Positions 3,949 to 27,202 of a stretch of 64,000 bases of DNA are shown here, in pieces (positions within the stretch are counted from its first letter, which is position 1; each line of letters opens with the position of its first letter). The translations under genes were made by a program, and so were the position numbers. Source of the stretch: an uncultured Bacteroidales bacterium (lineage in GTDB: Bacteria; Bacteroidota; Bacteroidia; Bacteroidales; UBA4417). The stretch spans positions 21,376 through 85,375 of the forward strand of contig CAIRMR010000154.1 in the NCBI GenBank assembly GCA_903879715.1. Reading direction: 5' to 3'. The notes under the pieces were generated by a model. The model had not been told where the DNA came from and ran no database searches. It was given only the letters and a program-made list of their open reading frames with translations.

Positions 3949-3976
3949 CTTCCGACTCCCGACTTCTGACTTCCGG
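3949..3976. repeat. Four phased heptamers: cttccga ctcccga cttctga cttccgg
   Basis: Read directly from the sequence. The array is preceded by cagggtg. A related array lies at 11149-11169, preceded by cagggca. Confidence 0.7.
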
Positions 3977-4042: not shown

Positions 4043-5077
4043 ATGAACGAGAATCCGACATATTACACCGACCTTATCACAAGGTACTTCTCCGGGGAAG
4101 CCACGGAAGATGAGTTGCGTGAGCTTTCGGAATGGCTTATAGCTGATCCAAATCACGAAGAGCTTTTTACACAATTACGTAAAACCTGGCTTTTAGTTGA
4201 AAAGAATAAGGTTTATTCATCTATTGATATAGAGAAGGACTGGCGGGCCTTTCAATCAAAACTGAACTCTATCGGGGGAAGTAGAGAAACGCCAATTGTT
4301 TTAGCTCTAAAGAAAAACATGAAAAGCCGGAATGCATTTCTCTCAAAAACCTGGAAAATAGCAGCATCTTTTACTATTTTGCTGGCAGCCTCATTTTTTT
4401 TGTATTTCAACCTTTCAAAGCTTAAGGACACAGTTGTTACAGCACATGACGCAAATATAGTGCATGTGCTTCCCGACGGCTCAGTAGTTTCGCTGCATGC
4501 CGGTTCACAGATCAGCTACGCCGCAAAATTTGATTCCAAAATCCGGAAAGTTGAATTGAAAGGTGAAGCGTACTTTGAAGTAGCTCATGATAAAACAAAA
4601 CCCTTTGTAGTGGCTTCGGGCGATGCAAGGGTAAAAGTGCTTGGAACAAAGTTCAACGTAAACACCAATACTTCCGACGGAACCATGGAAGTGGTTCTAA
4701 CAAGCGGGAAGGTTTCAGTATTTTTTAAGAGAAGTCCACAAAAAAACGTATCTCTTAATCCAGGCGAAAAAGCTGTATTGTTGGTTGATCAAAAGCAGAT
4801 CAGTAAATCGCCCAATGCTGATCCAAATTACATGGCATGGAAAACCAAGGTGCTGGTATTCGATAACGAAACACTGGCACAGGTTTTAAATACACTTCAG
4901 AATGTTTATCAAACTCCTGTTACACTTACTGATCCCGCTTTGTCCGAATGCCGCGTTACGGCTTCATTTGACGGACAGTCGCTTGAATCGGTATTACAGG
5001 TGATTAAAGAAACCTTAGATCTGCACGTGACACAGAACGGGAAAACCATTGAAATTTCAGGAAAGAGTTGCAGGTAA
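4043..5077 (+). CDS. FecR-family anti-sigma factor / transmembrane sensor
   Basis: N-terminal anti-sigma motif (LITRYFSGEATEDELRELSEWL), a single TM segment (WKIAASFTILLAASFFLYF), and a C-terminal FecR domain. I prefer the ATG at 4043 (MNENPTYY) over the ORF-track start at 4019. Confidence 0.85.
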   Translation: MNENPTYYTDLITRYFSGEATEDELRELSEWLIADPNHEELFTQLRKTWLLVEKNKVYSSIDIEKDWRAFQSKLNSIGGSRETPIVLALKKNMKSRNAFLSKTWKIAASFTILLAASFFLYFNLSKLKDTVVTAHDANIVHVLPDGSVVSLHAGSQISYAAKFDSKIRKVELKGEAYFEVAHDKTKPFVVASGDARVKVLGTKFNVNTNTSDGTMEVVLTSGKVSVFFKRSPQKNVSLNPGEKAVLLVDQKQISKSPNADPNYMAWKTKVLVFDNETLAQVLNTLQNVYQTPVTLTDPALSECRVTASFDGQSLESVLQVIKETLDLHVTQNGKTIEISGKSCR

Positions 5078-5942: not shown

Positions 5943-8603
5943 TTGAACCTCGGAAAAACAATATACCGGATTCTGATTACCTGCCTGCTTTTAATAGTGG
6001 CCTCGGTTACTTTTGCCCAAAACCTGGATAATAAAATTTCTATCCGGACTAAAAATAAGCCACTTGGAGAAGTAATTGAACAAATCAGCGAAAAAGGGAA
6101 TATCCTGTTCTCATTTAACCCACAATCAATCCCTATCAATAAAAAAATCACTGTAATTGCGCGGAATACTTCTCTGTCGAAGATTTTTGAAATGGTTTTT
6201 ACTGCCAATGGAATCGATTATACGCTTTCGGAAAAACAGGTGATTTTGAAGCTTGCCAAACAGGAAACTCTTCCAAAACCTGACCTGGCAGTAAAACAAC
6301 TCCGCAAATATACCATCAGCGGAACCATCAGGGATAAAGCTACCGGAGAGGTTATTTTCGGTGCCAATGTGTATGATATTGCTTCGATGCAAGGCACCAC
6401 AAGTAACGCTTATGGGTTTTACTCCCTTACATTACCGATGGGCGAATACAGCATTACAAATTCCTATATTGGTTATTCTCCTGTTTCACAGGCCGTAAAC
6501 CTGATTAAAAATATAAATGCCACGATTGACCTTGAACTTTCGGCTATCGAAATGAATACGGTTGTTATAACTTCTGATCCTGACGCAGAGACAAAACATC
6601 TGAATCAAACGGGAGATATGCATTTTTCGCCCGCAGTGCTAAAACAGATTCCGGGATTTGCCGGCAATGTGGATGTTCTCAAGTCGCTGCAGAATGTCCC
6701 GGGAATTCTTACGTTCGGCGATGGATCTTCATTTTACTATGTGCGTGGTGGTAACAGTGATCAGAATCTTTTGCTGATCGACGAAGCGCCGATTTACAAT
6801 CCTTCACACCTGTTTGGTTTCTTTTCGGCCCTGGCTCCCGATGCCATCAAAGATGTGGTGGTTTACAAAGGCGATTTCCCGGCGAATTATGGCGGAAGGC
6901 TTTCGTCGGTGGTTGATATGCGTGCCAGGGAAGGCAATATGAAACGGCTTGGCTTTTCAGGTAACCTCGGACCGTACACAACTGACCTTACACTGGAAGG
7001 GCCCATTTTGAAAGAGAAAAGTTCATTCCTGATTTCGAGCCGTATTTCGAACCTGAACTGGTTAAAATTCCTTGATGATGGAGACCGTACCTATAAATTT
7101 AATTTTTACGATATCAACGCCAAACTCAATGTACGGCTCAATGACAATAACCGGCTTTTTCTCACGGCTTTCAAAGGTAATGATGAGTTTAACCGATATA
7201 ATAGTTTGAATACTAACACATTTGGAATCAGCTGGAAAAATGTTGCCAGCACCTTGCGATGGAATCATGTTTTTAACAGCCGCTTTTTCTCAAATACAAC
7301 AGCTTACATCAGCCGGTATAACTATTATCTTGATCTCTCGAAAGAACTCAATACGTACTGGACATCCTCCATTTCAAATGCGACTATCAAAACGGATTTT
7401 TCCTGGTTTCTGAATCCCAAAAACACGATTAAAACCGGTTTTGAGATCAACGGGCATAAGAGCAATCCCGGAAAATTGTATTTCACGAATGACGAAATTC
7501 CTGCAAGCCTGGCACAATATCAATCTACTGAATTAGCCATATACGCGAGTAATGAACAACAACTTGGGCAAAAGTTTCTTGCGCGTTATGGTCTCAGGAT
7601 TTCCCGATGGAACGATCTTGGTCCAACATCAGTTTACTTTTTTGATGGCAATCACAATGTAATTGACACAATTAAAGTTGCTAAAAATACGGTTTACAAA
7701 AGCTTTCTGAACTTTGAGCCACGTATCAGCCTGAACTTTGCCATCAGCGAAAACTCATCACTTCATGCCAATTACAACCATAATGTTCAGCATTTGCAGG
7801 TATTAAGTAACTCTACAAGCCCTTTTACTTCACTCGATGTATGGATTCCGAGCGGGCCAAATATAGCACCACAGAAAGCGGATCAGTTTTCACTCGGCTA
7901 TTTCAGCAAAATATTCCAACGTCAATTTGATTTCTCCGTCGAAGGGTATTACAAACGGCTTTATAACCAGGTAGATTATAAGGATCATCCCAACATGCTG
8001 ATAAATAAGCTGATTGAAGGTGAACTCAGGTTTGGTGATGGCTGGTCGTATGGCATTGAAACATTGCTGCGCAAAAACAAAGGGAAATTCACCGGCTGGA
8101 TAAGTTATGCGTGGTCGCGGTCGATGAAGCAGATTGCGGATGTAAATGAGGGGAAAATCTTTCCGGCTGCTCACGACAGGCCTCATAATTTCTGCATTAC
8201 TTTATCCTATACAACCGGCAAACACTGGAGTTTTTCGACGCATTGGATGTATCTCACAGGAGCTCCGTTTAGTTCGCCAACTGGGTTTTATTATGTAAAC
8301 GGCTATTCGGTGCCAGTGTATGGCGAAAAGAATAACGACAGGCTTCCCGATTATCACCGAATGGATTTATCTGTTTCGTATGCGCTAAGTAAGCCGGAAA
8401 AAAGATTTCAGCACAACCTGGTACTCACAATATATAACGCTTACGGAAGACACAATCCCTTCTCAATAAATTTTAACAAAACACAGGATGATAATGAAAA
8501 TATTGTAGTTCCGGCTAATCTCGAAGGTGATGTTGATCGTATCATAACTTCGATGTCTGTTGCCGGAGCGATCCCATCACTTAACTATACTTTCCGTTTC
8601 TGA
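5943..8603 (+). CDS. TonB-dependent receptor with N-terminal STN signalling domain and carboxypeptidase-regulatory-like domain
   Basis: 886 aa with a TTG start and a signal peptide. It has an STN-like segment (ISIRTKNKPLGEVIEQISEKGNILFSF...), a CarbopepD_reg-like segment (ISGTIRDKATGEVIFGANVY), a plug and barrel, and a C-terminal aromatic residue (YTFRF). Confidence 0.9.
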   Translation: MNLGKTIYRILITCLLLIVASVTFAQNLDNKISIRTKNKPLGEVIEQISEKGNILFSFNPQSIPINKKITVIARNTSLSKIFEMVFTANGIDYTLSEKQVILKLAKQETLPKPDLAVKQLRKYTISGTIRDKATGEVIFGANVYDIASMQGTTSNAYGFYSLTLPMGEYSITNSYIGYSPVSQAVNLIKNINATIDLELSAIEMNTVVITSDPDAETKHLNQTGDMHFSPAVLKQIPGFAGNVDVLKSLQNVPGILTFGDGSSFYYVRGGNSDQNLLLIDEAPIYNPSHLFGFFSALAPDAIKDVVVYKGDFPANYGGRLSSVVDMRAREGNMKRLGFSGNLGPYTTDLTLEGPILKEKSSFLISSRISNLNWLKFLDDGDRTYKFNFYDINAKLNVRLNDNNRLFLTAFKGNDEFNRYNSLNTNTFGISWKNVASTLRWNHVFNSRFFSNTTAYISRYNYYLDLSKELNTYWTSSISNATIKTDFSWFLNPKNTIKTGFEINGHKSNPGKLYFTNDEIPASLAQYQSTELAIYASNEQQLGQKFLARYGLRISRWNDLGPTSVYFFDGNHNVIDTIKVAKNTVYKSFLNFEPRISLNFAISENSSLHANYNHNVQHLQVLSNSTSPFTSLDVWIPSGPNIAPQKADQFSLGYFSKIFQRQFDFSVEGYYKRLYNQVDYKDHPNMLINKLIEGELRFGDGWSYGIETLLRKNKGKFTGWISYAWSRSMKQIADVNEGKIFPAAHDRPHNFCITLSYTTGKHWSFSTHWMYLTGAPFSSPTGFYYVNGYSVPVYGEKNNDRLPDYHRMDLSVSYALSKPEKRFQHNLVLTIYNAYGRHNPFSINFNKTQDDNENIVVPANLEGDVDRIITSMSVAGAIPSLNYTFRF

Positions 8604-10990: not shown

Positions 10991-11148
10991 GGGGTTCTTC
11001 TGCGAAGTGAATGGAATTATTTTTTACTGGTCCTAAGACCGAAGTAACCAGCTTGCTGTAATATACCAACTGATAATACTAAGTTGGAAGCTATTAATTA
11101 TCATACGACATGGTGCTTTATTCAAAGGATAAAGTAGTATTCAGGGCA

Positions 11149-11169
11149 CTTCCGACTTCCGACAACTCC
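11149..11169. repeat. Phased heptamers: cttccga cttccga caactcc
   Basis: Read directly from the sequence. The array is preceded by cagggca and is related to 3949-3976. Confidence 0.6.
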
Positions 11170-11256: not shown

Positions 11257-11313
11257 ATGAACTTTAACCAATTACACCATCATCATCTGCATACCATCTC
11301 AGGCATGGAGTAA
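11257..11313 (+). CDS. Histidine operon leader peptide, MNFNQLHHHHLHTISGME
   Basis: 18 codons, with 5 His in 6 consecutive codons (CAC CAT CAT CAT CTG CAT). It sits between the promoter box and a strong terminator, directly upstream of hisG. Confidence 0.65.
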   Translation: MNFNQLHHHHLHTISGME

Positions 11314-11342: not shown

Positions 11343-11378
11343 AAACCCGTCTGAGTAAACAGCCGGGTTTTTTGTTTT
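11343..11378 (+). terminator. Intrinsic terminator (attenuator) between the leader peptide and hisG
   Basis: aaacccg (11343-11349) pairs with cgggttt (11364-11370), extendable with one mismatch (cccgtctg/cagccggg). It is followed by ttttgtttt. Confidence 0.65.
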
Positions 11379-11421: not shown

Positions 11422-12279
11422 ATGAGTAAATTAAAAATTGCAATTCAGAAATCAGGCCGGCTTAGTGAAAAATCGCTGGAACTCTTAAAAGAGTGCGGCA
11501 TCAAACTCTCAAATGGCGACCGCAAGCTAAAAACAGAAGCAAAAAATTTCCCCATCGAAGTACTTTTCCTTCGCGACGACGATATTCCTCAATATGTGGA
11601 ACAAGGCGTGGCGGATATTGGCATTTTGGGCGAGAACGAAGTGTGGGAGAAACATAAGGATGTGACCACCGTCGAAAAACTGGGATTTGCCAACTGCAAA
11701 CTTTCATTAGCCATTCCTAGAGATGAAAAGTATACCGGTTTAGCTTACTTCAACAACAAAAGGATAGCAACCAGCTATCCTAAAATTCTGCAAAAATTTT
11801 TCGATGAGAAAAACATCCGGGTCGAAATTGAAGAAATCGGCGGAAGCGTGGAAATTGCAACTGGTATTGGTTTGGCTGACGCCATTTTTGATATCGTAAG
11901 CACCGGCAGCACATTAGTGATGAATGGACTGAAAGAAGCAGAAGTCGTTTTTAAGAGCGAAGCTGTTTTGATTTCCAACAAAAACCTGGACACTGAAAAA
12001 CAACAAATCCTTGACAAGCTTCTTTTCAGAATTAAAGCCGTAAGGAACTCGTCCGAAAATAAATACATCCTGCTCAACGCTCCGAACAGTTCCATCGCAC
12101 AGATTTCTGCTATTTTACCGGGCATGAAATCACCAACTGTTTTACCCCTGGCTGAAGAAGGCTGGAGCAGCATTCACTCGGTAGTAAAGGAAGATCAATT
12201 CTGGGATATTATTGACCAGCTTCAGGCTCTGGGTGCCCAGGGAATCCTTGTAATTCCGATTGAGAAGATGGTCCTCTAA
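11422..12279 (+). CDS. hisG: ATP phosphoribosyltransferase (long form)
   Basis: 285 aa that matches the HisG long form as I recall the family. It is the first gene of the his operon. Confidence 0.95.
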   Translation: MSKLKIAIQKSGRLSEKSLELLKECGIKLSNGDRKLKTEAKNFPIEVLFLRDDDIPQYVEQGVADIGILGENEVWEKHKDVTTVEKLGFANCKLSLAIPRDEKYTGLAYFNNKRIATSYPKILQKFFDEKNIRVEIEEIGGSVEIATGIGLADAIFDIVSTGSTLVMNGLKEAEVVFKSEAVLISNKNLDTEKQQILDKLLFRIKAVRNSSENKYILLNAPNSSIAQISAILPGMKSPTVLPLAEEGWSSIHSVVKEDQFWDIIDQLQALGAQGILVIPIEKMVL

Positions 12280-12354
12280 TCCCGACTTCAAGGTCGGTGC
12301 TCAGACCTCGAATCATCCCTCAACCCCGACCTTCAGTTCGGGGCCTAAGACCCC
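12278..12354. repeat. Two ~32-nt direct repeats, each containing a short hairpin, in the hisG-hisD spacer
   Basis: aatcccgacttcaaggtcggtgctcagacctc (12278-12309) versus aaccccgaccttcagttcggggcctaagacccc (12322-12354). They are roughly three-quarters identical with one indel. The internal stems are ccgac/gtcgg and ccccga/tcgggg. Confidence 0.55.
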
Positions 12355-12359
12355 CAAAT

Positions 12360-13643
12360 ATGGAAAAATATATAAATCCAAACAAAAAAAACTGGCAAAA
12401 ACTCACTCAAAGGCCAACAGCCGAACAACTGTCCCTCGACGGAATAGTAAGCCAGGTCTTTTCGGAAATTCGAAAAGACGGTGATAAGGCTGTAAGGAAA
12501 TTCAGTCTTCTCTTCGACAAAGTTGAGCTGGAATCGTTTGCTATACCTCAAAAAGCAATTGAAGCTGCTTCGGTAAAAGTACCTGCTGGGCTGAAAGCCG
12601 CTATCCAATTGGCAAAAAGCAATATTGAAAAGTTCCATGCTGCACAAATCGAAACTCCGAAAATAATTGAAACCACCAAAGGTGTAGAATGCTGGCGCGA
12701 AAGCCGTGGAATTGAAACCGTTGGGATTTATATTCCGGGCGGAACGGCTCCATTGTTTTCGACTGTTCTGATGCTGGGTATTCCGGCTAAACTGGCCGGT
12801 TGCAAAAATATTATTCTTTGCACGCCGCCTGATAAAAACGGGGAAATCAACCCGGCTATTCTATACACAGCCGATCTTGTGGGAATTACTTCAGTTTTTA
12901 GTGTTGGCGGAATTCAAGCCGTTGCAGCTATGGCTTTTGGCACTGAAAGTATTCCCAAAGTGAATAAGATTTTTGGCCCCGGGAACCAATATGTAACAGC
13001 AGCTAAACAGGCTGCTCAGCAATTAGGCGTAGCTATCGATATGCCGGCCGGTCCAAGCGAAGTGCTGATAATTGCTGATAAAAGCTGTAACCCTGCGTTT
13101 GTGGCAGCAGATCTCCTTTCGCAAGCCGAACATGGAGCCGACAGCCAGGTAATTTTGCTTTCAGATAATGAAACTCTTATTGACAAGATACTTTCAGAAT
13201 TAGAACAACAGTTGGAAGCGTTGCCACGAAAGGAGATTGCTGCGAAAGCGTTGGAAAACAGCAAAGCCATTCTTCTGGAAGACATAAACGAATGTATTGA
13301 ATTCAGCAACAGTTATGCTCCTGAACACCTGATTCTGGCTGTAAAAGAAGCTAGAAATCTGATCCCTCAAATTTCAAAAGCAGGTTCCGTATTCCTTGGA
13401 AACTATAGTTGTGAAAGCGCCGGCGATTATGCCAGCGGAACCAATCACACCTTGCCGACAAACGGGTATGCACGAAGTTACAGCGGAGTTTCACTCGATA
13501 GTTTTGTTACCAAAATCACATTCCAGGAATTATCGAAAGAAGGCATCCGGAATATCGGCCCTTCCATTGAACTTATGGCCGAAGCGGAACAGTTGTTTGC
13601 ACATAAAAATGCAGTAACATTGAGATTGACGAAGTACGATTGA
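12360..13643 (+). CDS. hisD: Histidinol dehydrogenase
   Basis: HisD-like throughout, with a conserved SQAEHG motif. I prefer the ATG at 12360 (MEKYINPNKK). The 21 upstream codons in the ORF track are a translation of the spacer repeat. Confidence 0.95.
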   Translation: MEKYINPNKKNWQKLTQRPTAEQLSLDGIVSQVFSEIRKDGDKAVRKFSLLFDKVELESFAIPQKAIEAASVKVPAGLKAAIQLAKSNIEKFHAAQIETPKIIETTKGVECWRESRGIETVGIYIPGGTAPLFSTVLMLGIPAKLAGCKNIILCTPPDKNGEINPAILYTADLVGITSVFSVGGIQAVAAMAFGTESIPKVNKIFGPGNQYVTAAKQAAQQLGVAIDMPAGPSEVLIIADKSCNPAFVAADLLSQAEHGADSQVILLSDNETLIDKILSELEQQLEALPRKEIAAKALENSKAILLEDINECIEFSNSYAPEHLILAVKEARNLIPQISKAGSVFLGNYSCESAGDYASGTNHTLPTNGYARSYSGVSLDSFVTKITFQELSKEGIRNIGPSIELMAEAEQLFAHKNAVTLRLTKYD

Positions 13644-13891
13644 CGAAGTACGATTGACGAATGACGAAATGAGATTGACGAAGTATGATTGACGATGTAC
13701 GATGTACGATGTACGAACGACGATGTACGATTGACGATGTACGATTGACGATGTACGATTGACGATGTACGATTTACGATTGACGATGTACGAATGATGA
13801 TGTACGATTGACGATGTACGATGTACGAACGACGATGTACGATTGACGATGTACGATGTACGAACGACGATTAACGATTAACGAATAACGA
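13619..13891 (+). repeat. Tandem array of 38 phased heptamers (consensus T-K-K-A-C-G-A) plus one degenerate leading unit
   Basis: Hand-phased from 13626 to 13891 without any phase slip. The units are ttgacga, tgtacga, agtacga, acgacga, ttaacga and minor variants. The first three units encode the last hisD codons and its TGA stop. Confidence 0.95.
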
Positions 13892-13929
13892 TTGGCCGAA
13901 AATCGATTTTGAACATTAATTAAAGCATC

Positions 13930-14958
13930 ATGCAAAAATCAGAAATTATAAACCTTGTTCGCAAGAACATCATTTCATTGAAACCATACTCCAGCGCCCG
14001 TGATGAGTTTTCGGGTACAGACGGTGTGTTTTTAGATGCTAACGAAAATCCGTTTGGCGAACTGAACCGATATCCTGATCCTCACCAGAAAGAATTGAAA
14101 TCAAAGTTGTGCGAAATAAAATCAATTCCCTTTGAAACTATTTTTGTTGGCAATGGCAGCGACGAAGTGATTGATCTTACATTCCGCATTTTCTGCAATC
14201 CCAGAAAGGATAAAGCCCTTACCTTTACTCCAACCTACGGAATGTACGAAGTTTCGGCTGAAATTAATGAGGTGGAATTGATCAAAGTGCCTTTGACTTC
14301 TGAATTTCAGATAGATTTTAATGCATTAGAAAATTACTTGTCGGATGAAAATCTGAAGCTGATCTTTATCTGTTCGCCAAATAATCCAACAGCCAACAGC
14401 CTTGAAAATATTGAGAAAGTGCTTCAAAAATTTAAAGGAATAGTGATTGTGGACGAAGCGTATATTGATTTCAGCAAAGCCAGTTCTTTTCTCACTAAAA
14501 TTGATCAGTATCCGAACCTGATTGTTATGCAAACATTCAGCAAAGCCTGGGGATTGGCTGCCGCACGGGTCGGAATGGCCTATTCGAACGATTTGATTAT
14601 TTCGTTATACAACAAAGTTAAGCCACCTTATAATGTTAGTGATCCTAATCAGAAAGCAGCATTAAAAGCTTTGGAAGATGCTGACGGATTTGAGAAAAGA
14701 AAGTCCGTCATCCTGGAGCAAAGAACCTGGCTTCAGAATCAATTGGTCGAATTAGATGTTGTAATAAAGATATATCCCTCGGATGCGAATTTCCTGTTGG
14801 TTGAAATGACGGATGCCAACCGGATTTACAATGAACTTGTTAATCAGAAAGTTATTACCCGGAACAGGAATAGTGTAGTTCAGAATTGTATCCGGATAAC
14901 GGTTGGAAGTCCTGAGGAAAACCAAATACTGGTTGATGCTTTGAAAAAAATAAAATAA
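13930..14958 (+). CDS. hisC: Histidinol-phosphate aminotransferase
   Basis: 342 aa with the class-II aminotransferase pattern, including the PLP-lysine context (QTFSKAWGLA). Confidence 0.95.
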   Translation: MQKSEIINLVRKNIISLKPYSSARDEFSGTDGVFLDANENPFGELNRYPDPHQKELKSKLCEIKSIPFETIFVGNGSDEVIDLTFRIFCNPRKDKALTFTPTYGMYEVSAEINEVELIKVPLTSEFQIDFNALENYLSDENLKLIFICSPNNPTANSLENIEKVLQKFKGIVIVDEAYIDFSKASSFLTKIDQYPNLIVMQTFSKAWGLAAARVGMAYSNDLIISLYNKVKPPYNVSDPNQKAALKALEDADGFEKRKSVILEQRTWLQNQLVELDVVIKIYPSDANFLLVEMTDANRIYNELVNQKVITRNRNSVVQNCIRITVGSPEENQILVDALKKIK

Positions 14959-15078
14959 ACCACGGAGGCACAGAGAACACGGAGAAACACAGAGGAATTC
15001 TCAGAAAAAGTTAAAAGTTATTTTCAAATAAACAGTTTAATCTCTGTGAACCTCTGTGCCCTCCGTGTCTCCGTGGTT
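14958..15078. repeat. Imperfect palindrome built from inverted arrays of CAC(A/G)GAG units (hisC-hisB spacer)
   Basis: The left arm is aaccacggaggcacagagaacacggagaaacacagagg (14958-14995). The right arm is tctctgtgaacctctgtgccctccgtgtctccgtggtt (15041-15078). The outer 10 nt aaccacggag/ctccgtggtt are exact complements. The spacer is 45 nt and AT-rich. Confidence 0.9.
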
Positions 15079-15094
15079 AACAAATAAATCAATA

Positions 15095-16189
15095 ATGATG
15101 AAGAAAGTTTTATTTATAGACAGAGATGGCACCCTGGTTATTGAACCGCCCATCGATTTTCAGCTGGACAGCCTGGAGAAACTGGAGTTTTATCCCGGCG
15201 TCTTCCAATGGCTTTCGCGGATTGCACAGGAGCTCGATTACGAGTTGGTGATGGTTACCAACCAGGATGGACTTGGAACGACGGCTTTCCCTACGGAAAC
15301 TTTCTGGCCGGCCCAGGACAAAATCGTAAAGGCTTTCAAAAACGAAGGAATTCTGTTTTCTGAGATCGTGATTGATAAATCGTTTCCCCACGAAAACCTC
15401 CCGACCCGGAAACCAGGAACCGCCTTGTTAACTCATTATGTCAAAGGCAGCTACAATTTACCAGAATCGTTTGTAATCGGAGATCGTTTAACGGATGTGC
15501 AATTGGCCAAAAACCTCGGTAGTAAAGCCATTTATATGGGTACTGATGCTTGCGATGATGCTGATTTAAACACAACAAGCTGGGCTGATATTTACCAGCT
15601 TCTGAAATCAGAACCCAGAAAAGCAAAGATTGTCCGTAAAACTTCCGAAACCAATATCGAAATTGAACTCAACCTGGATGGATCGGGTAAGAGTTCCATT
15701 TCAACCGGGCTGGGCTTTTTCGACCATATGCTGGAACAGATTTCCAGGCATGGAAATATGGATTTAAATATCCAGGTGAAAGGCGATTTGCATATCGATG
15801 AACACCATACCATCGAAGATGTGGCCATTGCACTTGGTGAAGCTTTTATAAAAGCTTTGGGAAGCAAAAAAGGAATTGAACGATATGGTTTTCTGTTGCC
15901 TATGGACGATTGCCTGGCACAGGTGGCTATTGATTTTGGAGGCCGCCCCTGGCTGGTTTGGGACGCAGAATTCAAACGTGAAAAAATAGGTGAGATGCCT
16001 GCCGAAATGTTCTTTCACTTCTTTAAATCCTTCAGCGATAATGCCAAATGTAACCTGAATATCATGGCCGAAGGAAACAACGAACACCATAAGATCGAAG
16101 CCATTTTCAAGGCATTTGCCAAAGCAATCCGCATGGCAGTAAGCAAAACAGGTAATTTTTCGATTCCCAGCACGAAGGGGAGTTTATAA
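15095..16189 (+). CDS. hisB: Bifunctional histidinol-phosphatase / imidazoleglycerol-phosphate dehydratase
   Basis: HAD motif (FIDRDGT) at the N-terminus and an IGPD domain with His-rich motifs ([16 protein letters not shown]). I prefer the ATG at 15095. The ORF-track extension is a translation of the palindrome arm. Confidence 0.95.
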
Positions 16190-16195
16190 TTGAAA

Positions 16196-16251
16196 GAAGT
16201 AAGTTGTAAGGCATAAGAAGTAAGTTGTAAGGTATAAGTCGTAGAGTAAGA
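16196..16251 (+). repeat. Eight phased heptamers (TAAGNNN family), left flank of the four-helix-bundle gene
   Basis: gaagtaa gttgtaa ggcataa gaagtaa gttgtaa ggtataa gtcgtag agtaaga. This is also a 21-nt repeat present about 2.6 times. Confidence 0.9.
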
Positions 16252-16294
16252 ATTATGGAATAATTTTTTCAATCAATACTTAAAACTCAATATC

Positions 16295-16669
16295 ATGGAA
16301 AAAACACATTCATTTAAAGACCTGATAGTTTGGCAAAAAGCACATCAATTGGTAATTGCTATCTATAAAGCAACCAAACTATTCCCAAAAGAAGAAGTCT
16401 TTTCTTTAACTAACCAGGTAAGAAGAGCTGCTGTATCAATTCCTGCAGATATTTGTGAAGGATATAAAAAGAAGACTATTCCTAATCAATTGAATTTCAT
16501 CAACATTGCCGAAGGCTCTTTGGAAGAAGTGAAATATTATATCATTTTATCAAAAGACTTACAATACATTGATGAGAGTGCATACGAACAATTAACTAAT
16601 TCTGCCGAAGAAGTCGGAAGATTAATAAACGGTTATGAAAAAGCTATATCGAAGCGCCTTACTACTTAA
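16295..16669 (+). CDS. Four-helix-bundle protein (23S rRNA intervening-sequence protein family, PF05635/TIGR02436-like)
   Basis: 124 aa with the characteristic N-terminus (FKDLIVWQKAHQLVIAIYKATKLFPKEE..SLTNQVRRAAVSIPANI-like, EGSLEEVKYY). It is inserted between hisB and hisH. Confidence 0.85.
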   Translation: MEKTHSFKDLIVWQKAHQLVIAIYKATKLFPKEEVFSLTNQVRRAAVSIPADICEGYKKKTIPNQLNFINIAEGSLEEVKYYIILSKDLQYIDESAYEQLTNSAEEVGRLINGYEKAISKRLTT

Positions 16670-16689
16670 ACCTTACATCTTATACCTTA
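16655..16689 (-). repeat. Five phased heptamers of the same TAAGNNN family in inverted orientation, right flank of the four-helix-bundle gene
   Basis: On the plus strand: cgcctta ctactta aacctta catctta tacctta. The reverse complement reads taaggta taagatg taaggtt taagtag taaggcg. It shares the 11-nt exact segment taaggtataag with the left array. It overlaps the last codons and stop of the 4HB ORF and ends 4 nt before the hisH ATG. Confidence 0.85.
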
Positions 16690-16693
16690 ACAG

Positions 16694-17275
16694 ATGCAAA
16701 TCGCAATTATAAAATACAATGCAGGCAATATAAAATCTGTTGAAAACGCAGTCAAAAGATTGGGGTACGATTGTATAGTTACCGACAATCCGGAGCTTAT
16801 CAGAAACGCCGAAAAAGTTATATTCCCCGGCGTTGGCGAAGCAAGTTCGGCCATGCAATATTTAAAAAAACACCACCTGGATAGTCTGATCAAATCTTTA
16901 ACACAACCAACGCTCGGAATTTGCCTAGGTCAGCAGTTAATGTGCAAATATTCTGAAGAAAATGATACCGATTGCTTAGGCATCTTTGATGCAGACGTAA
17001 AAAAATTCCCACCTGAAGAACTGGTTCCGCATATGGGATGGAATAACATTGAAAACCTGAAAAGCGCTTTATTTAATGGAATCAGCGATGAGGATAATGT
17101 TTATTTCGTGCACAGCTATTATGCTGAACTGAGCCAAGAAACCATAGCTACATGCCAGTATATTCTGCCTTTCAGCGCTGCCATGCAGAAGGACAATTTC
17201 TACGCAACCCAGTTTCATCCTGAAAAATCAGCCTGGGTTGGTGAACGGATCTTAAAAAACTTTTTAGAATTATGA
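16694..17275 (+). CDS. hisH: Imidazole glycerol phosphate synthase, glutamine amidotransferase subunit
   Basis: 193 aa with the GATase-1 Cys context (LGICLGQQL) and a C-terminal FHPEKS motif. Confidence 0.95.
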
Positions 17276-17985
17276 GAATTATTCCCGCAATAGATATAAT
17301 TGGTGGAAAGTGCGTCAGGCTTAGTAAAGGCGACTATTCCACAAAAAAAATATACAACGAAAGCCCTTTGGAAGTCGCCAAGGAATTTGAGGCCAATGGA
17401 ATTCAATTTCTGCACGTTGTGGATCTGGATGGAGCAAAATCGAACCATATTGTCAACTTCAAAGTTTTACACGAGATTGCCACCAAAACCAAACTGAAAG
17501 TCGATTTTGGCGGCGGGCTGAAAAGCAACGAAGACCTGAAAATTGCTTTCGAAAACGGAGCATCGCAGATTACAGGAGGAAGCATTGCCGTTAAAAATCC
17601 TGATCTTTTTCAGGAATGGCTTGCTATTTATGGGTCAGAAAAGATTATCCTCGGAGCCGATTGCATCGACAGGAAAATCGCCACTCATGGCTGGCTCGAA
17701 ACTTCTTCACTGGATGTAGTTGATTTTATCCTCGATTTTGAAGCGAAAGGCGTTCAATATGTTATTTGCACCGATATTTCGAAGGATGGTATGCTGGAGG
17801 GAACTTCAAACGAACTGTATGTTGAAATAATGGATAAAACCAAAATCAAACTGATTGCCAGCGGCGGGGTTACCTCAATTGAAGATGTCGAAAAGTTAAT
17901 TGAGATGGGTTGCGAAGGAGCCATTATCGGTAAAGCCATTTACGAGCAGAAAATAACACTGAAAGAATTAAGAAGATTATGCTGA
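17272..17985 (+). CDS. hisA: ProFAR isomerase
   Basis: 237 aa. [15 protein letters not shown] at the N-terminus is typical of HisA. It overlaps hisH by 4 nt. Confidence 0.95.
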
Positions 17986-18737
17986 AAAAACGAATCATTC
18001 CCTGCCTCGATATCCGTGATGGACGAACTGTAAAGGGAATCAACTTTATTGATATCCGCGATGCCGGCGATCCGGTTGAACTGGCAAAACGTTATGTACA
18101 GGAAGGGGCCGACGAGCTGGTGTTCCTGGATATTACTGCCACGCACGAAAACCGCAAAACACTTTCAGCCCTGGTTGAGAAAATTTCCAGGGAAATCAAT
18201 ATTCCGTTTACTGTGGGTGGTGGAATCAACTCGCTGGCTGATGTTTCTGTAATTATTAAAGCTGGTGCCGATAAAGTAAGCATCAATTCATCCGCTGTAA
18301 AACGTCCTGAACTTATCACTGAAATTGCCGAGCAATTTGGCAGCCAGTGTGTGGTAGTAGCCATCGATACAAAATTCGTGAACAACGAATGGATCGTTTA
18401 TGTGCATGGTGGCAGAATTCCTACCTTACTCAAAACGATGGATTGGGTAAAACAGGTTGAAGAACTTGGAGCGGGCGAAATCTTACTTACTTCAATGAAC
18501 AACGATGGCATGAAAACCGGCTTTGCACTTGATATTACCAACGCAGTAAGCCAGGCAGTTAATATCCCTGTCATCGCTTCGGGCGGAGCAGGAACAAAGG
18601 AACATTTCAAGGAAGTTTTCAGTCAAACCAAAGCAAGTGCGGCCCTGGCTGCCAGCATTTTCCACTTCGGCGAAATCCCTATCCCCGATTTAAAAAACTA
18701 TTTACAAACCGAAAAAATACCTGTACGATGCTTATAG
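17979..18737 (+). CDS. hisF: Imidazole glycerol phosphate synthase, cyclase subunit
   Basis: 252 aa with [16 protein letters not shown] and [10 protein letters not shown] motifs. Confidence 0.95.
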
Positions 18738-19327
18738 ATTTCAGTAAAACTAACGGTTTAGTGCCGGTAATAATTCAGAATTATCAAAACCAGCAGGTTC
18801 TGATGCTTGGATATATGAATGAGGAAGCATTCGCAAAAACCCGGTCGGAAGGAAAGGTTACTTTTTTCAGCCGCAGCAAAAACAGGCTCTGGACAAAGGG
18901 CGAAACTTCGGGTAATTTCCTGATTGTGAAAGACATTCTTGTAGATTGCGATAATGATACCATCCTGATAAAAGCAGATCCTATCGGTCCAACCTGCCAC
19001 ACCGGGTCAACCACCTGTTTTAAAGACGAAACTGCAAAAGGGTTTTTATATGAGTTAGAGCAAACCATTCATCAACGTATAGATGAAAATGATGTGGATT
19101 CATACACCAATAAACTCTTCCGCAAAGGCATTAATAAAGTAGCCCAAAAAGTCGGTGAAGAAGCTGTTGAACTGGTAATTGAAGCCAAGGACGACAACGA
19201 AGATCTCTTTAAAAACGAAGCCGCCGACCTGCTTTATCACCTGCTGATTTTACTGAAAACAAAGAACGTAAAACTGGAAGATGTAGAACTTGTTTTAAAA
19301 AACAGGGTAAATCTGCCGCGGAGGTAA
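18728..19327 (+). CDS. hisIE: Bifunctional phosphoribosyl-AMP cyclohydrolase / phosphoribosyl-ATP pyrophosphatase
   Basis: 199 aa with an N-terminal HisI domain ([25 protein letters not shown]) and a C-terminal HisE domain ([26 protein letters not shown]). Confidence 0.95.
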
Positions 19328-24645: not shown

Positions 24646-25218
24646 CTATTTTTGCTTATTTCTTACATCCATTCGTGCCTGCGACATACGTTCGCGTAAG
24701 CCGCCTTCCTCCAAAAATTCTTTTTCCAGGGTTTTAATTTGCTGTGCAAGCAGGTAAGAAGTTACATTTATCAAACTTATTAAAACATTTGCTGAAACTT
24801 CAGGATCGGGACTTTCAATTCCTTTTCTGTACGTTTCGTAAGTGGCGTCAGGTATTTTGTGTTTTAGGGTAAGTTTTGGATAATAGGGATGTGATTTGTC
24901 CCAATATGTCAGTTTGTTGTTTCGCAAATAATCTTTGTAGTCAATCAACAATTCCTCTAATGATGCTCGTGCAACATTGGTGAGTTTTATTTCCATTTCC
25001 TTTGAAGTGCCGGAAGCCATACTGGCCTCTGCGATATTCTGTTTCCCTGAACGGGCTGCCTGTACCATTTGATCAATGGTTCGGTCGTATGGGTGAAAGT
25101 ATTTTTTAGTGAAATATTTCGTTCCGTCAAATATTATTTCTGCTTTCTGGTAGGTTATCAAACGTTCGTAACCTCCATATTTGGGAATAAATCCATCGGG
25201 GTTGTATTGTTTGCCCAT
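24646..25218 (-). CDS. Four-helix-bundle protein with C-terminal suffix domain (TIGR02436 plus TIGR04258-like)
   Basis: 190 aa. The motifs DQMVQAARSGKQNIAEAS and ARASLEELLIDYKDYL are typical of this subfamily as I recall it. Confidence 0.7.
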   Translation of the reverse strand: MGKQYNPDGFIPKYGGYERLITYQKAEIIFDGTKYFTKKYFHPYDRTIDQMVQAARSGKQNIAEASMASGTSKEMEIKLTNVARASLEELLIDYKDYLRNNKLTYWDKSHPYYPKLTLKHKIPDATYETYRKGIESPDPEVSANVLISLINVTSYLLAQQIKTLEKEFLEEGGLRERMSQARMDVRNKQK

Positions 25219-25268
25219 GGGTGTTCTATTTAATTATTACACTCTTGTTTATTTCGGGGGACAATCAA

Positions 25269-25303
25269 GACAATTAAGACAGTGAATCACTGTCTTAATT
25301 GTC
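25269..25303 (-). terminator. Perfect 16-bp hairpin built on AGACAAT-type units, between recJ and the 4HB-suffix gene
   Basis: gacaattaagacagtg / cactgtcttaattgtc with a 3-nt loop. It is preceded by the direct units gacaatca agacaatt aagacagt. Confidence 0.55.
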
Positions 25304-25346
25304 ACCAAAGTCGTCATAAATTAAAGATAACATTAAAACCACCCTA

Positions 25347-27122
25347 CTAACTCTCATCACAAAACCTTATATCCTTAATATTTAATTGGATATTCTTTAC
25401 CCCGTTCCATTCGTTTTCCTCGATATGGTAACAGATATTCATGCTTTGACCTTTTTGAATCAAATCAAATTTTTCGCCCTGCTGGAAAGCAATTCCCGAA
25501 TATGGATCACTACGTACGGATTCCTGGTAAACAGTCATTTTAACATGATTTTTGCCCACAATACGGGCATGGCCGGAATCAACCGTATCGCGTGTCATAA
25601 AAACCGGTGACATATTACCCGGTCCAAAAGGAGCGAACTGCTTAAGAATCCGCAGGAATTTGGGCGTGATCTGGTTCAGGTTCACTTCAAGGTCAACTTC
25701 CACTTCCGGAATCAACATTTCATCAGTAATACTGGCTGAAACAATTGAATTAAACCTTTCCCTGAAAGGTTTCAGATTTTCAGGTTTCATGGATAATCCA
25801 GCCGCGTACATATGCCCGCCAAAGTGTTCGAGCAAATCACTGCACGCATCTATGGCATCATAAACATCAAAATCTTTCACCGATCGGGCTGATCCGGTTA
25901 TCAATCCGTTCGATTGGGTTAATACTACCGTTGGGCGGTAATAGGATTCCGTTAGCCGTGAGGCAACAATTCCAATCACGCCCTTGTGCCAGTCGGGGTT
26001 AAAAACCACCGTGGCCCTTGCCTTGCGAAGTTTATCATCTTTATTAATAATATCGAGGGCTTCAAGCGTAATCTGTGTATCCAGGGTACGACGTTCAGTA
26101 TTAAAATCGTTGATGGTCTGGGCTATACTGACGGCTGTTTCCATATCAGGCGAGACCAGCAGTTTTACTGAATTACGGCCGCTTTCGATACGCCCGGCGG
26201 CATTTATACGCGGCCCAACCACGAAAACCATATCACTGATAGTGAGTTCCCGGCTGAAAAGTAAACCAGCTTCAAGCCCTTCTTTCATAATTTCTTCTTC
26301 AGGTTTGCGGACTATATTGGCAACACCTAATATGGATTCAATTCCCGGTCGAGGATTTGTATTAATTAGTTTTAATCCAAAATGAGCCAGGATACGGTTT
26401 TCGCCAATAATAGGAACTATATCAGAGGCGATGCTGATAGTTACCAGGTCGAGAAATTTATATAAACTATCGAAAGAAATATCATGTGTTTGTGCATACG
26501 CCTGTATCAGTTTAAAGCCAACACCACATCCGCAAAGTTCATCGAAAGGATAGGTGGAATCAATTCTTTTGGCATCAAGTACTGCAACGGCATCAGGAAG
26601 TTCGTCGCCTGGCCTGTGGTGATCGCAGATAATGAAATCAATACCGCGTTCGTTTGCGTATTTTATTTTGTCAACAGACTTTATGCCACAATCGAGAGCT
26701 ATGATCAGTGCAAAATTTTCCTTCTGGGCATAATCAATTCCCTGGAATGAAATACCATATCCTTCGCTGTACCTATCAGGAATATAATAATCAAGGTGTT
26801 CAAATCCGTTTTCTTTCAGAAAAGCATATACCAGCGCAACAGCCGTGGTTCCATCCACATCGTAATCGCCGTAAACCATTATTTTCTGGTTGTTGGCTTT
26901 GGCAGATTCAATACGATTGATAGCCTTGTCCATGTCGTTAAGCAGAAAAGGATCATGTAGCTGGGACAAGTCGGGCCGGAAAAATGCTTTCGCTTCCTCA
27001 AAACTGGTAACCCCGCGTTGCACCAGCAATTCAGCAAGAGCGTTTTCAATCCCCAATTCTCCGGCAATACCCGAAACCAGGGATGAGTCACCTTTTTGCT
27101 TTAGTACCCAGCGTTTTTCCAT
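25347..27122 (-). CDS. recJ: Single-stranded-DNA-specific exonuclease RecJ
   Basis: DHH motifs (DYDVDGTT, DCG, ICDHH) and a DHHA1 domain. I prefer the ATG at 27122 (MEKRWVLK) over the ORF-track start at 27200. Confidence 0.9.
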   Translation of the reverse strand: MEKRWVLKQKGDSSLVSGIAGELGIENALAELLVQRGVTSFEEAKAFFRPDLSQLHDPFLLNDMDKAINRIESAKANNQKIMVYGDYDVDGTTAVALVYAFLKENGFEHLDYYIPDRYSEGYGISFQGIDYAQKENFALIIALDCGIKSVDKIKYANERGIDFIICDHHRPGDELPDAVAVLDAKRIDSTYPFDELCGCGVGFKLIQAYAQTHDISFDSLYKFLDLVTISIASDIVPIIGENRILAHFGLKLINTNPRPGIESILGVANIVRKPEEEIMKEGLEAGLLFSRELTISDMVFVVGPRINAAGRIESGRNSVKLLVSPDMETAVSIAQTINDFNTERRTLDTQITLEALDIINKDDKLRKARATVVFNPDWHKGVIGIVASRLTESYYRPTVVLTQSNGLITGSARSVKDFDVYDAIDACSDLLEHFGGHMYAAGLSMKPENLKPFRERFNSIVSASITDEMLIPEVEVDLEVNLNQITPKFLRILKQFAPFGPGNMSPVFMTRDTVDSGHARIVGKNHVKMTVYQESVRSDPYSGIAFQQGEKFDLIQKGQSMNICYHIEENEWNGVKNIQLNIKDIRFCDES

Positions 27123-27202
27123 AGAGTAAGCCCTTAGGCAAAAATATAATAATAATTGTAAAATGGAATTGCTTTTTTTGATTAAATCCTCAAAAAGCAA
27201 TA

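Follow-up and report, generated by a model that had tools for sequence, protein, structure and literature searches.

Opposed heptamer arrays flank an intervening-sequence protein gene in a Bacteroidales his operon and recur around its relatives

The histidine biosynthesis (his) operon of an uncultured Bacteroidales bacterium carries, between hisB and hisH, a small gene of protein family PF05635 that is flanked by two opposed arrays of tandem heptamers. The operon lies within positions 21,376 to 85,375 of contig CAIRMR010000154.1 (assembly GCA_903879715.1, forward strand), and this whole stretch of 64,000 nucleotides (nt) is the window to which coordinates refer unless another locus is named. 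The combination of gene and arrays, called the cassette here, is found at operon junctions and in an rRNA gene across six phyla, and is probably a general module. With confidence little above even, it is interpreted as the same kind of element as the intervening sequences (IVSs) of 23S rRNA that bear an open reading frame (ORF): a PF05635 gene with inverted arrays of a conserved heptamer, located in this case at an intercistronic junction, whose arms would make it loop out of the host RNA or would tag it for cleavage by RNase III.

The his operon is of the Bacteroidota type (window 11422-19327, + strand), with the gene order hisG-D-C-B-[insert]-H-A-F-IE. The insert and its two host genes comprise the following features.

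15095-16189, + strand: hisB, bifunctional HAD phosphatase / imidazole glycerol-phosphate (IGP) dehydratase (Pfam IGPD, E 1.5e-63), the upstream host gene.
16194-16251, + strand: left arm, about 8 phased purine-rich heptamers of the TAAGNNN / GNNGTAA type (Tandem Repeats Finder, direct-repeat families and fold).
16252-16294, + strand: A+T-rich leader from the left arm to the cassette ATG, read from the sequence and kept in the close orthologue L081.
16295-16669, + strand: cassette ORF, a 124-residue four-helix-bundle protein, PF05635 / TIGR02436 ('IVS protein', Avd-like fold).
16655-16689, + strand: right arm, 5 heptamers of the left-arm family in reverse complement (Tandem Repeats Finder, inverted pairs and fold).
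16694-17275, + strand: hisH, glutamine amidotransferase (Pfam GATase), the downstream host gene, with its ATG at 16694.

The cassette is co-oriented with the his operon and fills the entire hisB-hisH junction, a gap of 504 nt with one ORF (16295-16669). The start of hisB at 15095 was set by alignment with relatives; its TAA stop codon occupies 16187-16189, and the left arm begins 5 nt past it. The original prediction for this DNA, made from the letters alone, described eight left heptamers at 16196-16251 (gaagtaa gttgtaa ggcataa gaagtaa gttgtaa ggtataa gtcgtag agtaaga) and five opposed heptamers of the same family at 16655-16689, and both arrays are in the sequence as given. The exact 11-nt complementary core that it reported is also present, with taaggtataag (16228-16238) facing cttatacctta (16679-16689), and the right array does cover the last codons of the ORF (R L T T stop) and end 4 nt short of the hisH ATG. 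Tandem Repeats Finder describes the left array as a 21-nt unit in 2.1 copies with 95% matches, and recovers period 7 too. The best inverted pair between the arms extends over 30 nt with 80% complementarity. No terminator was found inside the cassette.

Most related operons lack this insert, as a search for empty sites shows. The hisB-hisH gap is shorter than 150 nt in 59 of 64 related Bacteroidota his operons, and the cassette-free junctions inspected are overlaps or short spacers, typically a TTATGA stop/start overlap. Because related junctions take these forms, the cassette is an insertion, made at the TTATGA overlap of hisB and hisH. Orthologous hisB-hisH copies span protein identities of 100% to about 60%. 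Their arrays vary in sequence and copy number and retain a mutually complementary type; in L083, for example, the right arm is (CACCTTA)x4 and the left arm is built of GGTAAGG-type units. Another subfamily (B), about 20% identical to the one in the window (A), occupies four junctions in the his operons of Flavobacteriaceae.

hisB-hisH: L028 and L165.
hisH-hisA: L044 and L168-L174.
hisA-hisF: L091 and L109.
DinB-hisF: L167.

Each subfamily B copy lies between opposed heptamer arrays of the GAAGTAC, GTTAGAA or GGTTAGA type, although the arms of L167 are poorly complementary. Carriers of subfamily B that can be cultivated include Salinimicrobium, Christiangramia (formerly Gramella) and Muricauda, whose copies are at hisH-hisA or hisB-hisH. 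Loci L091 and L109 combine both subfamilies in one operon, the A cassette with TAAG-type arms and the B cassette with TACGAA-type arms. Other small genes in his spacers (DinB, DUF559, Y1 transposase, GNAT and MazEF) are without such arms. Small inserted genes of these other kinds are frequent at Bacteroidota his junctions (L048, L062, L070, L076, L165 and L167), one of them a DUF559 endonuclease gene flanked by G/C hairpins of its own, and the his operon appears to collect small cassettes in this phylum.

Profile searches bear out the expectation of a 124-residue four-helix-bundle protein in the hisB-hisH gap. The cassette protein scores 130.6 bits against PF05635 (cut-off 33.8, E 3e-38) and 119.3 bits against TIGR02436 (cut-off 24, E 8.5e-35). 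Further matches are the solved pentameric four-helix bundles 2gsc and 2rld, each of which contains five chains of one sequence, and the Xanthomonas protein is described as a homopentamer (PMC4990558). Among orthologues, the ratio of nonsynonymous to synonymous substitution rates (dN/dS) of the ORF is 0.03-0.12 over a dS range of 0.3 to above 2. The protein evolves at the rate of a housekeeping enzyme, because it is 82% identical between the window and L083, where HisB and HisH together are 80.8% identical. Sequence comparison thus indicates a functional protein kept by strong purifying selection. Protein searches for two subfamilies alone gave at least 3,500 and at least 8,000 relatives.

The case that gene and arrays belong together comes from the family rather than from this locus. 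That the arrangement is real follows from its recurrence in about 90% of 68 non-redundant PF05635 loci when these are set against 109 control ORFs. Many of the 68 are mutually orthologous, so that the independent evidence consists of 17 distinct contexts in six phyla: 16 junctions between genes and one rRNA gene. The median ungapped inverted-repeat score is 16.5 for PF05635 loci versus 7.5 for controls, and 88% of the loci lie above the control 95th percentile. Minimum free energy (MFE) folds with at least 15 long-range arm-arm pairs are obtained for 93% of loci (median 30.5) versus 32% of controls. Period 7 is the best period in 50 of 68 upstream arms and 55 of 68 downstream arms, and mean autocorrelation is 0.68 at this period compared with 0.40-0.49 at others.

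The repeated unit is itself conserved. Phasing of 48 arrays gives AGT[A/C][A/G]G[R] (A36/T10, G38, T42, A32/C16, A36/G10, G48, R42), in which position 6 is G without exception (48/48), and the consensus units of the left and right arms agree in 34 of 41 loci. Polarity is near-constant, with the purine-rich arm upstream and the pyrimidine-rich arm downstream except in L184 and L186. The arrays directly adjoin the stop codon of the gene before and the start codon of the gene after; the median spacing is 70 nt between the upstream stop and the cassette ATG, and 31 nt between the cassette's own stop and the ATG that follows. Neighbouring genes are co-oriented with the cassette in 60 of 63 cases upstream and 58 of 61 downstream. 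Outside the his operon, the contexts include the following.

TolC-ABC-ATPase junction (Ignavibacteriales).
ABC-ATPase-FtsX, queF-rph and DUF58-BatA-like junctions.
GFO_IDH-AP_endonuc_2 and leuD-leuA-like junctions (Anaerolineae).
cmr2-cmr3 (L185, 1195-1551) and cas6-cas4 (L186, 1207-1566) junctions in CRISPR-Cas operons on cyanobacterial plasmids.
A Gemmatimonadota replicon.

The flanks of other family copies, which the original prediction had named as a test, therefore carry inverted arrays in both sampled subfamilies, and four loci depart from the pattern. One of the irregular copies, L184, lies beside transposases and is without a purine-rich left arm. Units of 8 nt occur on at least one arm in L105, L108, L110 and L187 (~1051-1140 and 1563-1597), for example AGGGCAGG/CTCCTGCC in Gemmatirosa. 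In L187 an additional gene-less inverted pair lies just 5' of the cassette. Circular permutation turns AGTAAGG into the Shine-Dalgarno heptamer TAAGGAG, right arms of the CCTTACT type resemble the 3' tail of 16S rRNA, and in Anaerolineae the last left-arm unit occupies the expected ribosome-binding-site position of the cassette ORF. As for such a Shine-Dalgarno relationship, the GGAG part of the heptamer is not conserved in Bacteroidota arrays. A role for TAA- or TAG-bearing heptamers as three-frame stops was rejected, since the AGTCAGA type has no stop codon.

Homology and architecture both link these cassettes directly to rRNA IVSs. An unannotated tblastn match on plasmid AZO_p2 of Azospirillum lipoferum (L182) falls within a 23S rRNA gene, some 1,160 nt from the 5' end of that gene, and its ORF is a PF05635 relative (E 4e-16). 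The left flank of this ORF reads cagagga cggatga cagagga cggagga cagaaag and the right flank is its reverse complement, giving a stem of about 35 bp and a fold of -240.9 kcal/mol (z -10.7). The Coxiella IVS has an AG-rich box followed by two or three copies of GACAGAT, a number that differs between strains, and RNase III cuts have been mapped in its stem at the first repeat (PMC4990558). Rotated to TGACAGA, this unit fits the family consensus.

The his cassette thus shares with the ORF-bearing IVSs of Leptospira, Coxiella, Brucella and Azospirillum a PF05635 ORF in the sense orientation of the host transcript, a size of ~430-500 nt, inverted flanks that make a long stem, and purine-rich heptamers 5' of the ORF (GACAGAT in Coxiella, GACAGAG/GACGGAG in Azospirillum). 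It differs from them in three respects. Whereas rRNA IVSs reside in helix 25 or 45 of 23S rRNA, it occupies an mRNA stop/start junction between hisB and hisH, and Rfam detects no rRNA in window 11-20 kb. Its arms are degenerate and form an interrupted stem (-30 kcal/mol), in contrast to the near-perfect 25-35 bp of the rRNA copies. Finally, its ORF is under strong purifying selection, while that of Coxiella is reported to be decaying and untranslated. The earlier description of an IVS-like cassette in a polycistronic mRNA accordingly finds support in both architecture and homology, through the Azospirillum 23S IVS and the Coxiella heptamers. By the Coxiella precedent, a split of hisGDCB from hisHAFIE by RNase III at the array stem is plausible, but the two sequence tests for an RNA helix described below do not support it.

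Some 23S rRNA IVSs, of the Salmonella, Yersinia and Campylobacter type, lack an ORF. Arrays without a gene also occur at two other junctions of the his operon in the window.

14958-15078, + strand: ORF-less hairpin filling the hisC-hisB junction, with 37-nt arms of the CACGGAG/CACAGAG type and a 47-nt loop.
13619-13894, + strand: ORF-less one-directional heptamer array filling the hisD-hisC junction, 276 nt, ~39 heptamers TGTACGA/TTGACGA.

The hisC-hisB hairpin (~120 nt) has a fold of -51.4 kcal/mol (z -8.8). It is present in orthologues L081 and L082 and absent in L083, and the same junction holds a PF05635 cassette in relatives L100, L103 and L104. Rfam returned only spurious miRNA-precursor matches for this hairpin. 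Units of the hisD-hisC array are of the type that flanks subfamily B cassettes; among orthologues, this array is long in L081, short in L082 and absent in L083. Elsewhere, gene-less inverted heptamer pairs fill spacers in L024, L067 and L169. The gene-less pairs in L024, L067 and L177, like the hisC-hisB hairpin, can be viewed as mRNA counterparts of ORF-less 23S IVSs, which are likewise short hairpin inserts looped out of the host RNA, the difference being that the host here is mRNA and not rRNA. ORF-bearing and ORF-less forms here mirror those of rRNA IVSs.

Heptamer arrays are not confined to cassettes. A stringent scan of 1.37 Mb gave 78 period-7 arrays, of which 42 lie no more than 150 nt from a PF05635 gene, in zones that account for 5% of the sequence; this sample is biased, because the loci were picked for a PF05635 gene. 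The other 36 do not adjoin such a gene. In the Anaerolineae ilv-leu operon of L177, arrays occupy nearly every spacer (for example, 2610-2754, 5006-5072, 6156-6205 and 7832-7927), some of them as gene-less inverted pairs, and AGAGTAA and TTACTCT arrays bracket leuA. The same operon carries HigB/HTH and PIN/HTH toxin-antitoxin inserts and a GNAT gene. Dimers of the heptamer consensus number 5 in the window versus 0.5 expected. Short arrays of CTTCCGA, the reverse complement of AGTCGGA, which fits the consensus, are found at 3949-3975 in the spacer between extracytoplasmic function (ECF) sigma factor and FecR genes and at 11148-11163 upstream of the his leader.

In the mechanism favoured here, the arms of a polycistronic transcript would pair and loop the cassette out of the host RNA. 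The stem may keep the hisB stop beside the hisH start, may be cut by RNase III in the manner of an rRNA IVS, or both. By either route, an insertion would be tolerated at a translationally coupled junction. Some factor, perhaps the pentameric protein that the cassette itself encodes, might additionally recognise the conserved core of the heptamer. In keeping with pairing, MFE and centroid folds of the window locus both join the two arms in ~33 bp, broken every few pairs, with the predicted stem base 5 nt past the hisB stop and 5 nt ahead of the hisH start. Within the his clade, moreover, the arms of a locus pair better with each other than with arms of different loci (within-clade permutation, p = 2e-7).

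Several results weigh against a conserved RNA stem. At the window locus, the z-score of the whole-region fold is only -1.9. The arm-arm duplex reaches -30.5 kcal/mol compared with -21.4 +/- 3.4 for shuffled sequences, 5 of 500 of which equal it, and the left arm finds about equally good partners in several unrelated stretches of the 64 kb. For these reasons the single locus is suggestive and not compelling, its stem being weakly above chance in the proposed comparison with shuffled controls. Arm strength among orthologues ranges from -19 to -45 kcal/mol. The flanks of the cyanobacterial L186 are direct arrays, (AAAGCTA)x15 and (AAAGCCA)x10, and not inverted ones. Among arm mismatches, G·U is not favoured over A·C (58 versus 74; isolated mismatches 28 versus 34). 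Selection for a helix in the sense RNA is therefore unsupported, because such a helix should favour G·U. Permuting the order of right-arm units leaves complementarity unchanged (18.3 versus 17.8; significant in 2 of 40 loci), and in the window 91% of unit-order permutations equal or exceed the pairing of the native order. No Rfam family matches the arms.

These tests replaced column-wise covariation, which was dropped because arrays differ in unit number and cannot be aligned. The permuted-pair control was run within clades, since a version over all loci is confounded by the heptamers that loci of one clade share. Because unit order can be permuted without harm, complementarity stems from the two arms sharing one heptamer family and not from position-specific pairing. 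Own arms nevertheless pair better than foreign ones, so the unit types of a locus co-evolve while their order is irrelevant. Such behaviour fits a register-free 'zipper' that tolerates slippage, and fits a DNA motif or a protein-binding role equally well. It is because the results suit all three that belief in the RNA-stem mechanism stays just past the midpoint.

If the arrays act instead as DNA, they would be the ends of a small mobile or insertable cassette, and RNA pairing would be a by-product. They could serve as the sites of a recombinase or transposase provided in trans, or be slippage- or hairpin-prone sequence that mediates insertion, relocation and precise loss. We consider this proposal unlikely. 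The strand-symmetric mismatch spectrum and the indifference of complementarity to unit order are what it predicts, and the cassettes do appear to have moved between his junctions and, in other lineages, between operons. Subfamily B is found at four his junctions, and the hisC-hisB copies of L100, L103 and L104 are nested among hisB-hisH copies in the protein tree. Two proteins that are 82% identical (P0241 and P0244) reside in different operons of what their accession series indicate is a single Anaerolineae metagenome-assembled genome (MAG). Cassette-bearing hosts form at least four clades interleaved with cassette-free ones, and the cassette-free L003 groups with the cassette-bearing L083 in 77% of quartet bootstraps. 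On a larger scale, different phyla carry the module in biosynthetic operons, in cas operons and in rRNA genes.

Other signs of DNA mobility are missing. No target-site duplication was noticed at junctions read by eye, in the course of which no systematic search was made. Near-identical copies were not seen: the 64 kb hold one subfamily A copy, and the closest paralogues in one MAG are the 82% pair. The mobile cassette that the original prediction offered as an alternative is thus favoured by relocation, by these paralogues and by patchy hosts, and disfavoured by the lack of visible duplications or recent identical copies. There is no linked recombinase, no integrase domain among the ORFs scanned, and no relative of the window's cassette subfamily among viral contigs. 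Against an integron gene cassette, the flanks are two opposed arrays and not one attC site, although no attC model was run. Compared with terminal inverted repeats (TIRs) and miniature inverted-repeat transposable elements (MITEs), inverted ends are present, yet they are tandem arrays of variable length, unlike known terminal inverted repeats. Arrays are identical in the same strain from other samples. Each protein clade keeps to one operon over long divergence, and about 95% of neighbouring host genes are co-oriented with the cassette, which argues for constraint at the transcript level. The module has persisted through saturating synonymous divergence and is old in this lineage. An ancient, fixed gene without array flanks would have spoken against an IVS-like cassette; the gene is indeed old and fixed in the lineage, but its arrays have been kept throughout.

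The heptamer arrays might otherwise serve as putative binding sites, in RNA or DNA, for the four-helix-bundle pentamer, so that the cassette is autoregulated. ORF-less arrays (in the hisD-hisC junction, the sigma-FecR spacer and the Anaerolineae ilv-leu spacers) would then be further targets of a post-transcriptional or transcriptional regulon. We regard this as doubtful, despite several points that speak for it. Avd, a homologous pentamer, binds nucleic acid, purifying selection on the cassette protein is strong, and the heptamer core is conserved across phyla beyond the needs of pairing. Heptamer type also tracks protein subfamily even within one operon (L091 and L109), but this link may reflect common descent alone. 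The many solo arrays of intergenic spacers, 36 of the 78, would be explained; the inverted partner would not, because a binder of single-stranded RNA would recognise one arm.

A purely fortuitous association, in which slippage-born heptamer arrays happen to flank a domesticated small gene with no joint function, is very improbable and already strongly disfavoured. Among long simple repeats, heptamers are the most frequent class in many bacteria, and intergenic ones are documented as abundant in Beggiatoaceae, Cyanobacteria and some Bacteroidetes (PMC4679880). Solo arrays are present in the window and related loci, and the stem of this locus is weak against shuffles. Chance does not account, however, for an inverted arrangement in about 90% of the family versus about 5% of controls, for a polarity fixed in nearly every locus, for the absence of arms from other small inserted genes, or for recurrence of the module in rRNA. 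The 54% of stringent arrays that fall within the 5% of sequence adjoining PF05635 genes, a figure biased upward by gene-based selection of loci, point the same way.

The notion that the gene encodes the Avd accessory protein of a diversity-generating retroelement, or is a remnant of one, was rejected as almost certainly wrong: despite the homologous four-helix-bundle fold and weak matches to bAvd (PF22296, E 6e-12) and NF033474 DivGenRetAVD, the score for the latter (46.9 bits) is under the equivalog cut-off of 80, no reverse transcriptase is found among the ORFs scanned in window 1-30 kb or beside the gene in sampled loci, template and variable repeats are not part of the cassette, and the setting is a biosynthetic operon.

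A broader proposal is that PF05635 genes and heptamer arrays form one autonomous, phylum-spanning class of 'transcript-embedded' elements. Such elements would insert at helix loops or stop/start junctions of long, highly expressed transcripts (rRNA, biosynthetic and cas operons) and zip their repeat arms to be harmless, while the pentamer would recognise the arrays to control processing, its own expression or spread. Intervening sequences of rRNA and 'cas-associated' IVP genes would be special cases. This unified view is offered tentatively, as a possibility to which we give less than even credence.

Parts of the cassette resemble other known systems. Hairpins of the repetitive extragenic palindromic (REP) and bacterial interspersed mosaic element (BIME) types and RNase III sites, in E. 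coli and phage T7, are structured elements situated exactly between cistrons of polycistronic mRNAs, where they can set differential stability or processing; unlike the cassette, they have no gene in the loop and are not built of heptamers. Cyanobacterial short tandemly repeated repetitive (STRR) heptamers are a known type of intergenic heptamer repeat. By Tandem Repeats Finder and period spectrum, the arrays studied here are likewise tandem 7-nt units in spacers. In this they resemble the TAACTGA intergenic repeats of Beggiatoaceae, Cyanobacteria and Bacteroidetes (PMC4679880), which also vary in copy number, often lie beside start codons and occur in overlapping phyla. Those repeats are described as direct and without a linked gene, whereas opposed arrays bracket a gene family here, and no rotation of TAACTGA gives the family unit AGT[A/C][A/G]G[R].

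A 2013 study counted 23S_rRNA_IVP genes among the cas-associated ones and noted them, for instance, in the interval from cmr2 to cmr3 and close to cas4/cas6 (PMC3936711). These contexts are like those of L185 and L186, although the genes were read as having a CRISPR-linked function and flanking arrays were not mentioned. Because the L185 and L186 copies carry flanking arrays, our data suggest that cas-associated IVP genes are the same intercistronic cassette in another long operon. A full-text literature search turned up no account of repeat arrays flanking PF05635 genes, except for the heptamers of the Coxiella IVS.

Several further features of the window deserve mention. A second family member, a 190-residue TIGR04258 'four helix bundle suffix' protein, is encoded at 24646-25218 (- strand). 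It follows a 617-residue ORF (25347-27200, - strand) that reads like RecJ. A palindrome of heptamer-like units with 38-nt arms (25248-25324) lies 5' of the TIGR04258 gene, which has no bracketing inverted arrays. Directly 3' is a gene for a ParE/RelE-family toxin (Pfam ParE_toxin, TIGR02385; 24120-24598, - strand), preceded by a small ORF with a weak, sub-threshold match to RelB/ParD antitoxins. Upstream of hisG, a candidate his leader peptide (11257-11313, MNFNQLHHHHLHTISGME) contains four consecutive His codons, and an 11-bp G+C-rich hairpin and T run 3' of it (~11343-11378) resemble a histidine attenuator; Rfam gave no match at this putative attenuator. A sigma-70 promoter scan was dropped as uninformative for Bacteroidota, and its matches in the hisD-hisC array are a repeat artefact.

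The function of IVS proteins and the origin of rRNA IVSs are questions that have stood since the early 1990s, and the family is very large. If gene and arrays are one module, rRNA IVSs would be a special case of a general element that tractable operons, for instance his of Flavobacteriia, would open to study. The heptamer array would become a concrete candidate ligand for an orphan pentameric protein related to Avd, and the repeated 'association' of the gene with unrelated systems such as CRISPR-Cas would be explained. The intergenic heptamer repeats of Cyanobacteria, Bacteroidota and others would gain an origin or a partner. The module would also predict how translationally coupled junctions tolerate insertions of 0.5 kb.

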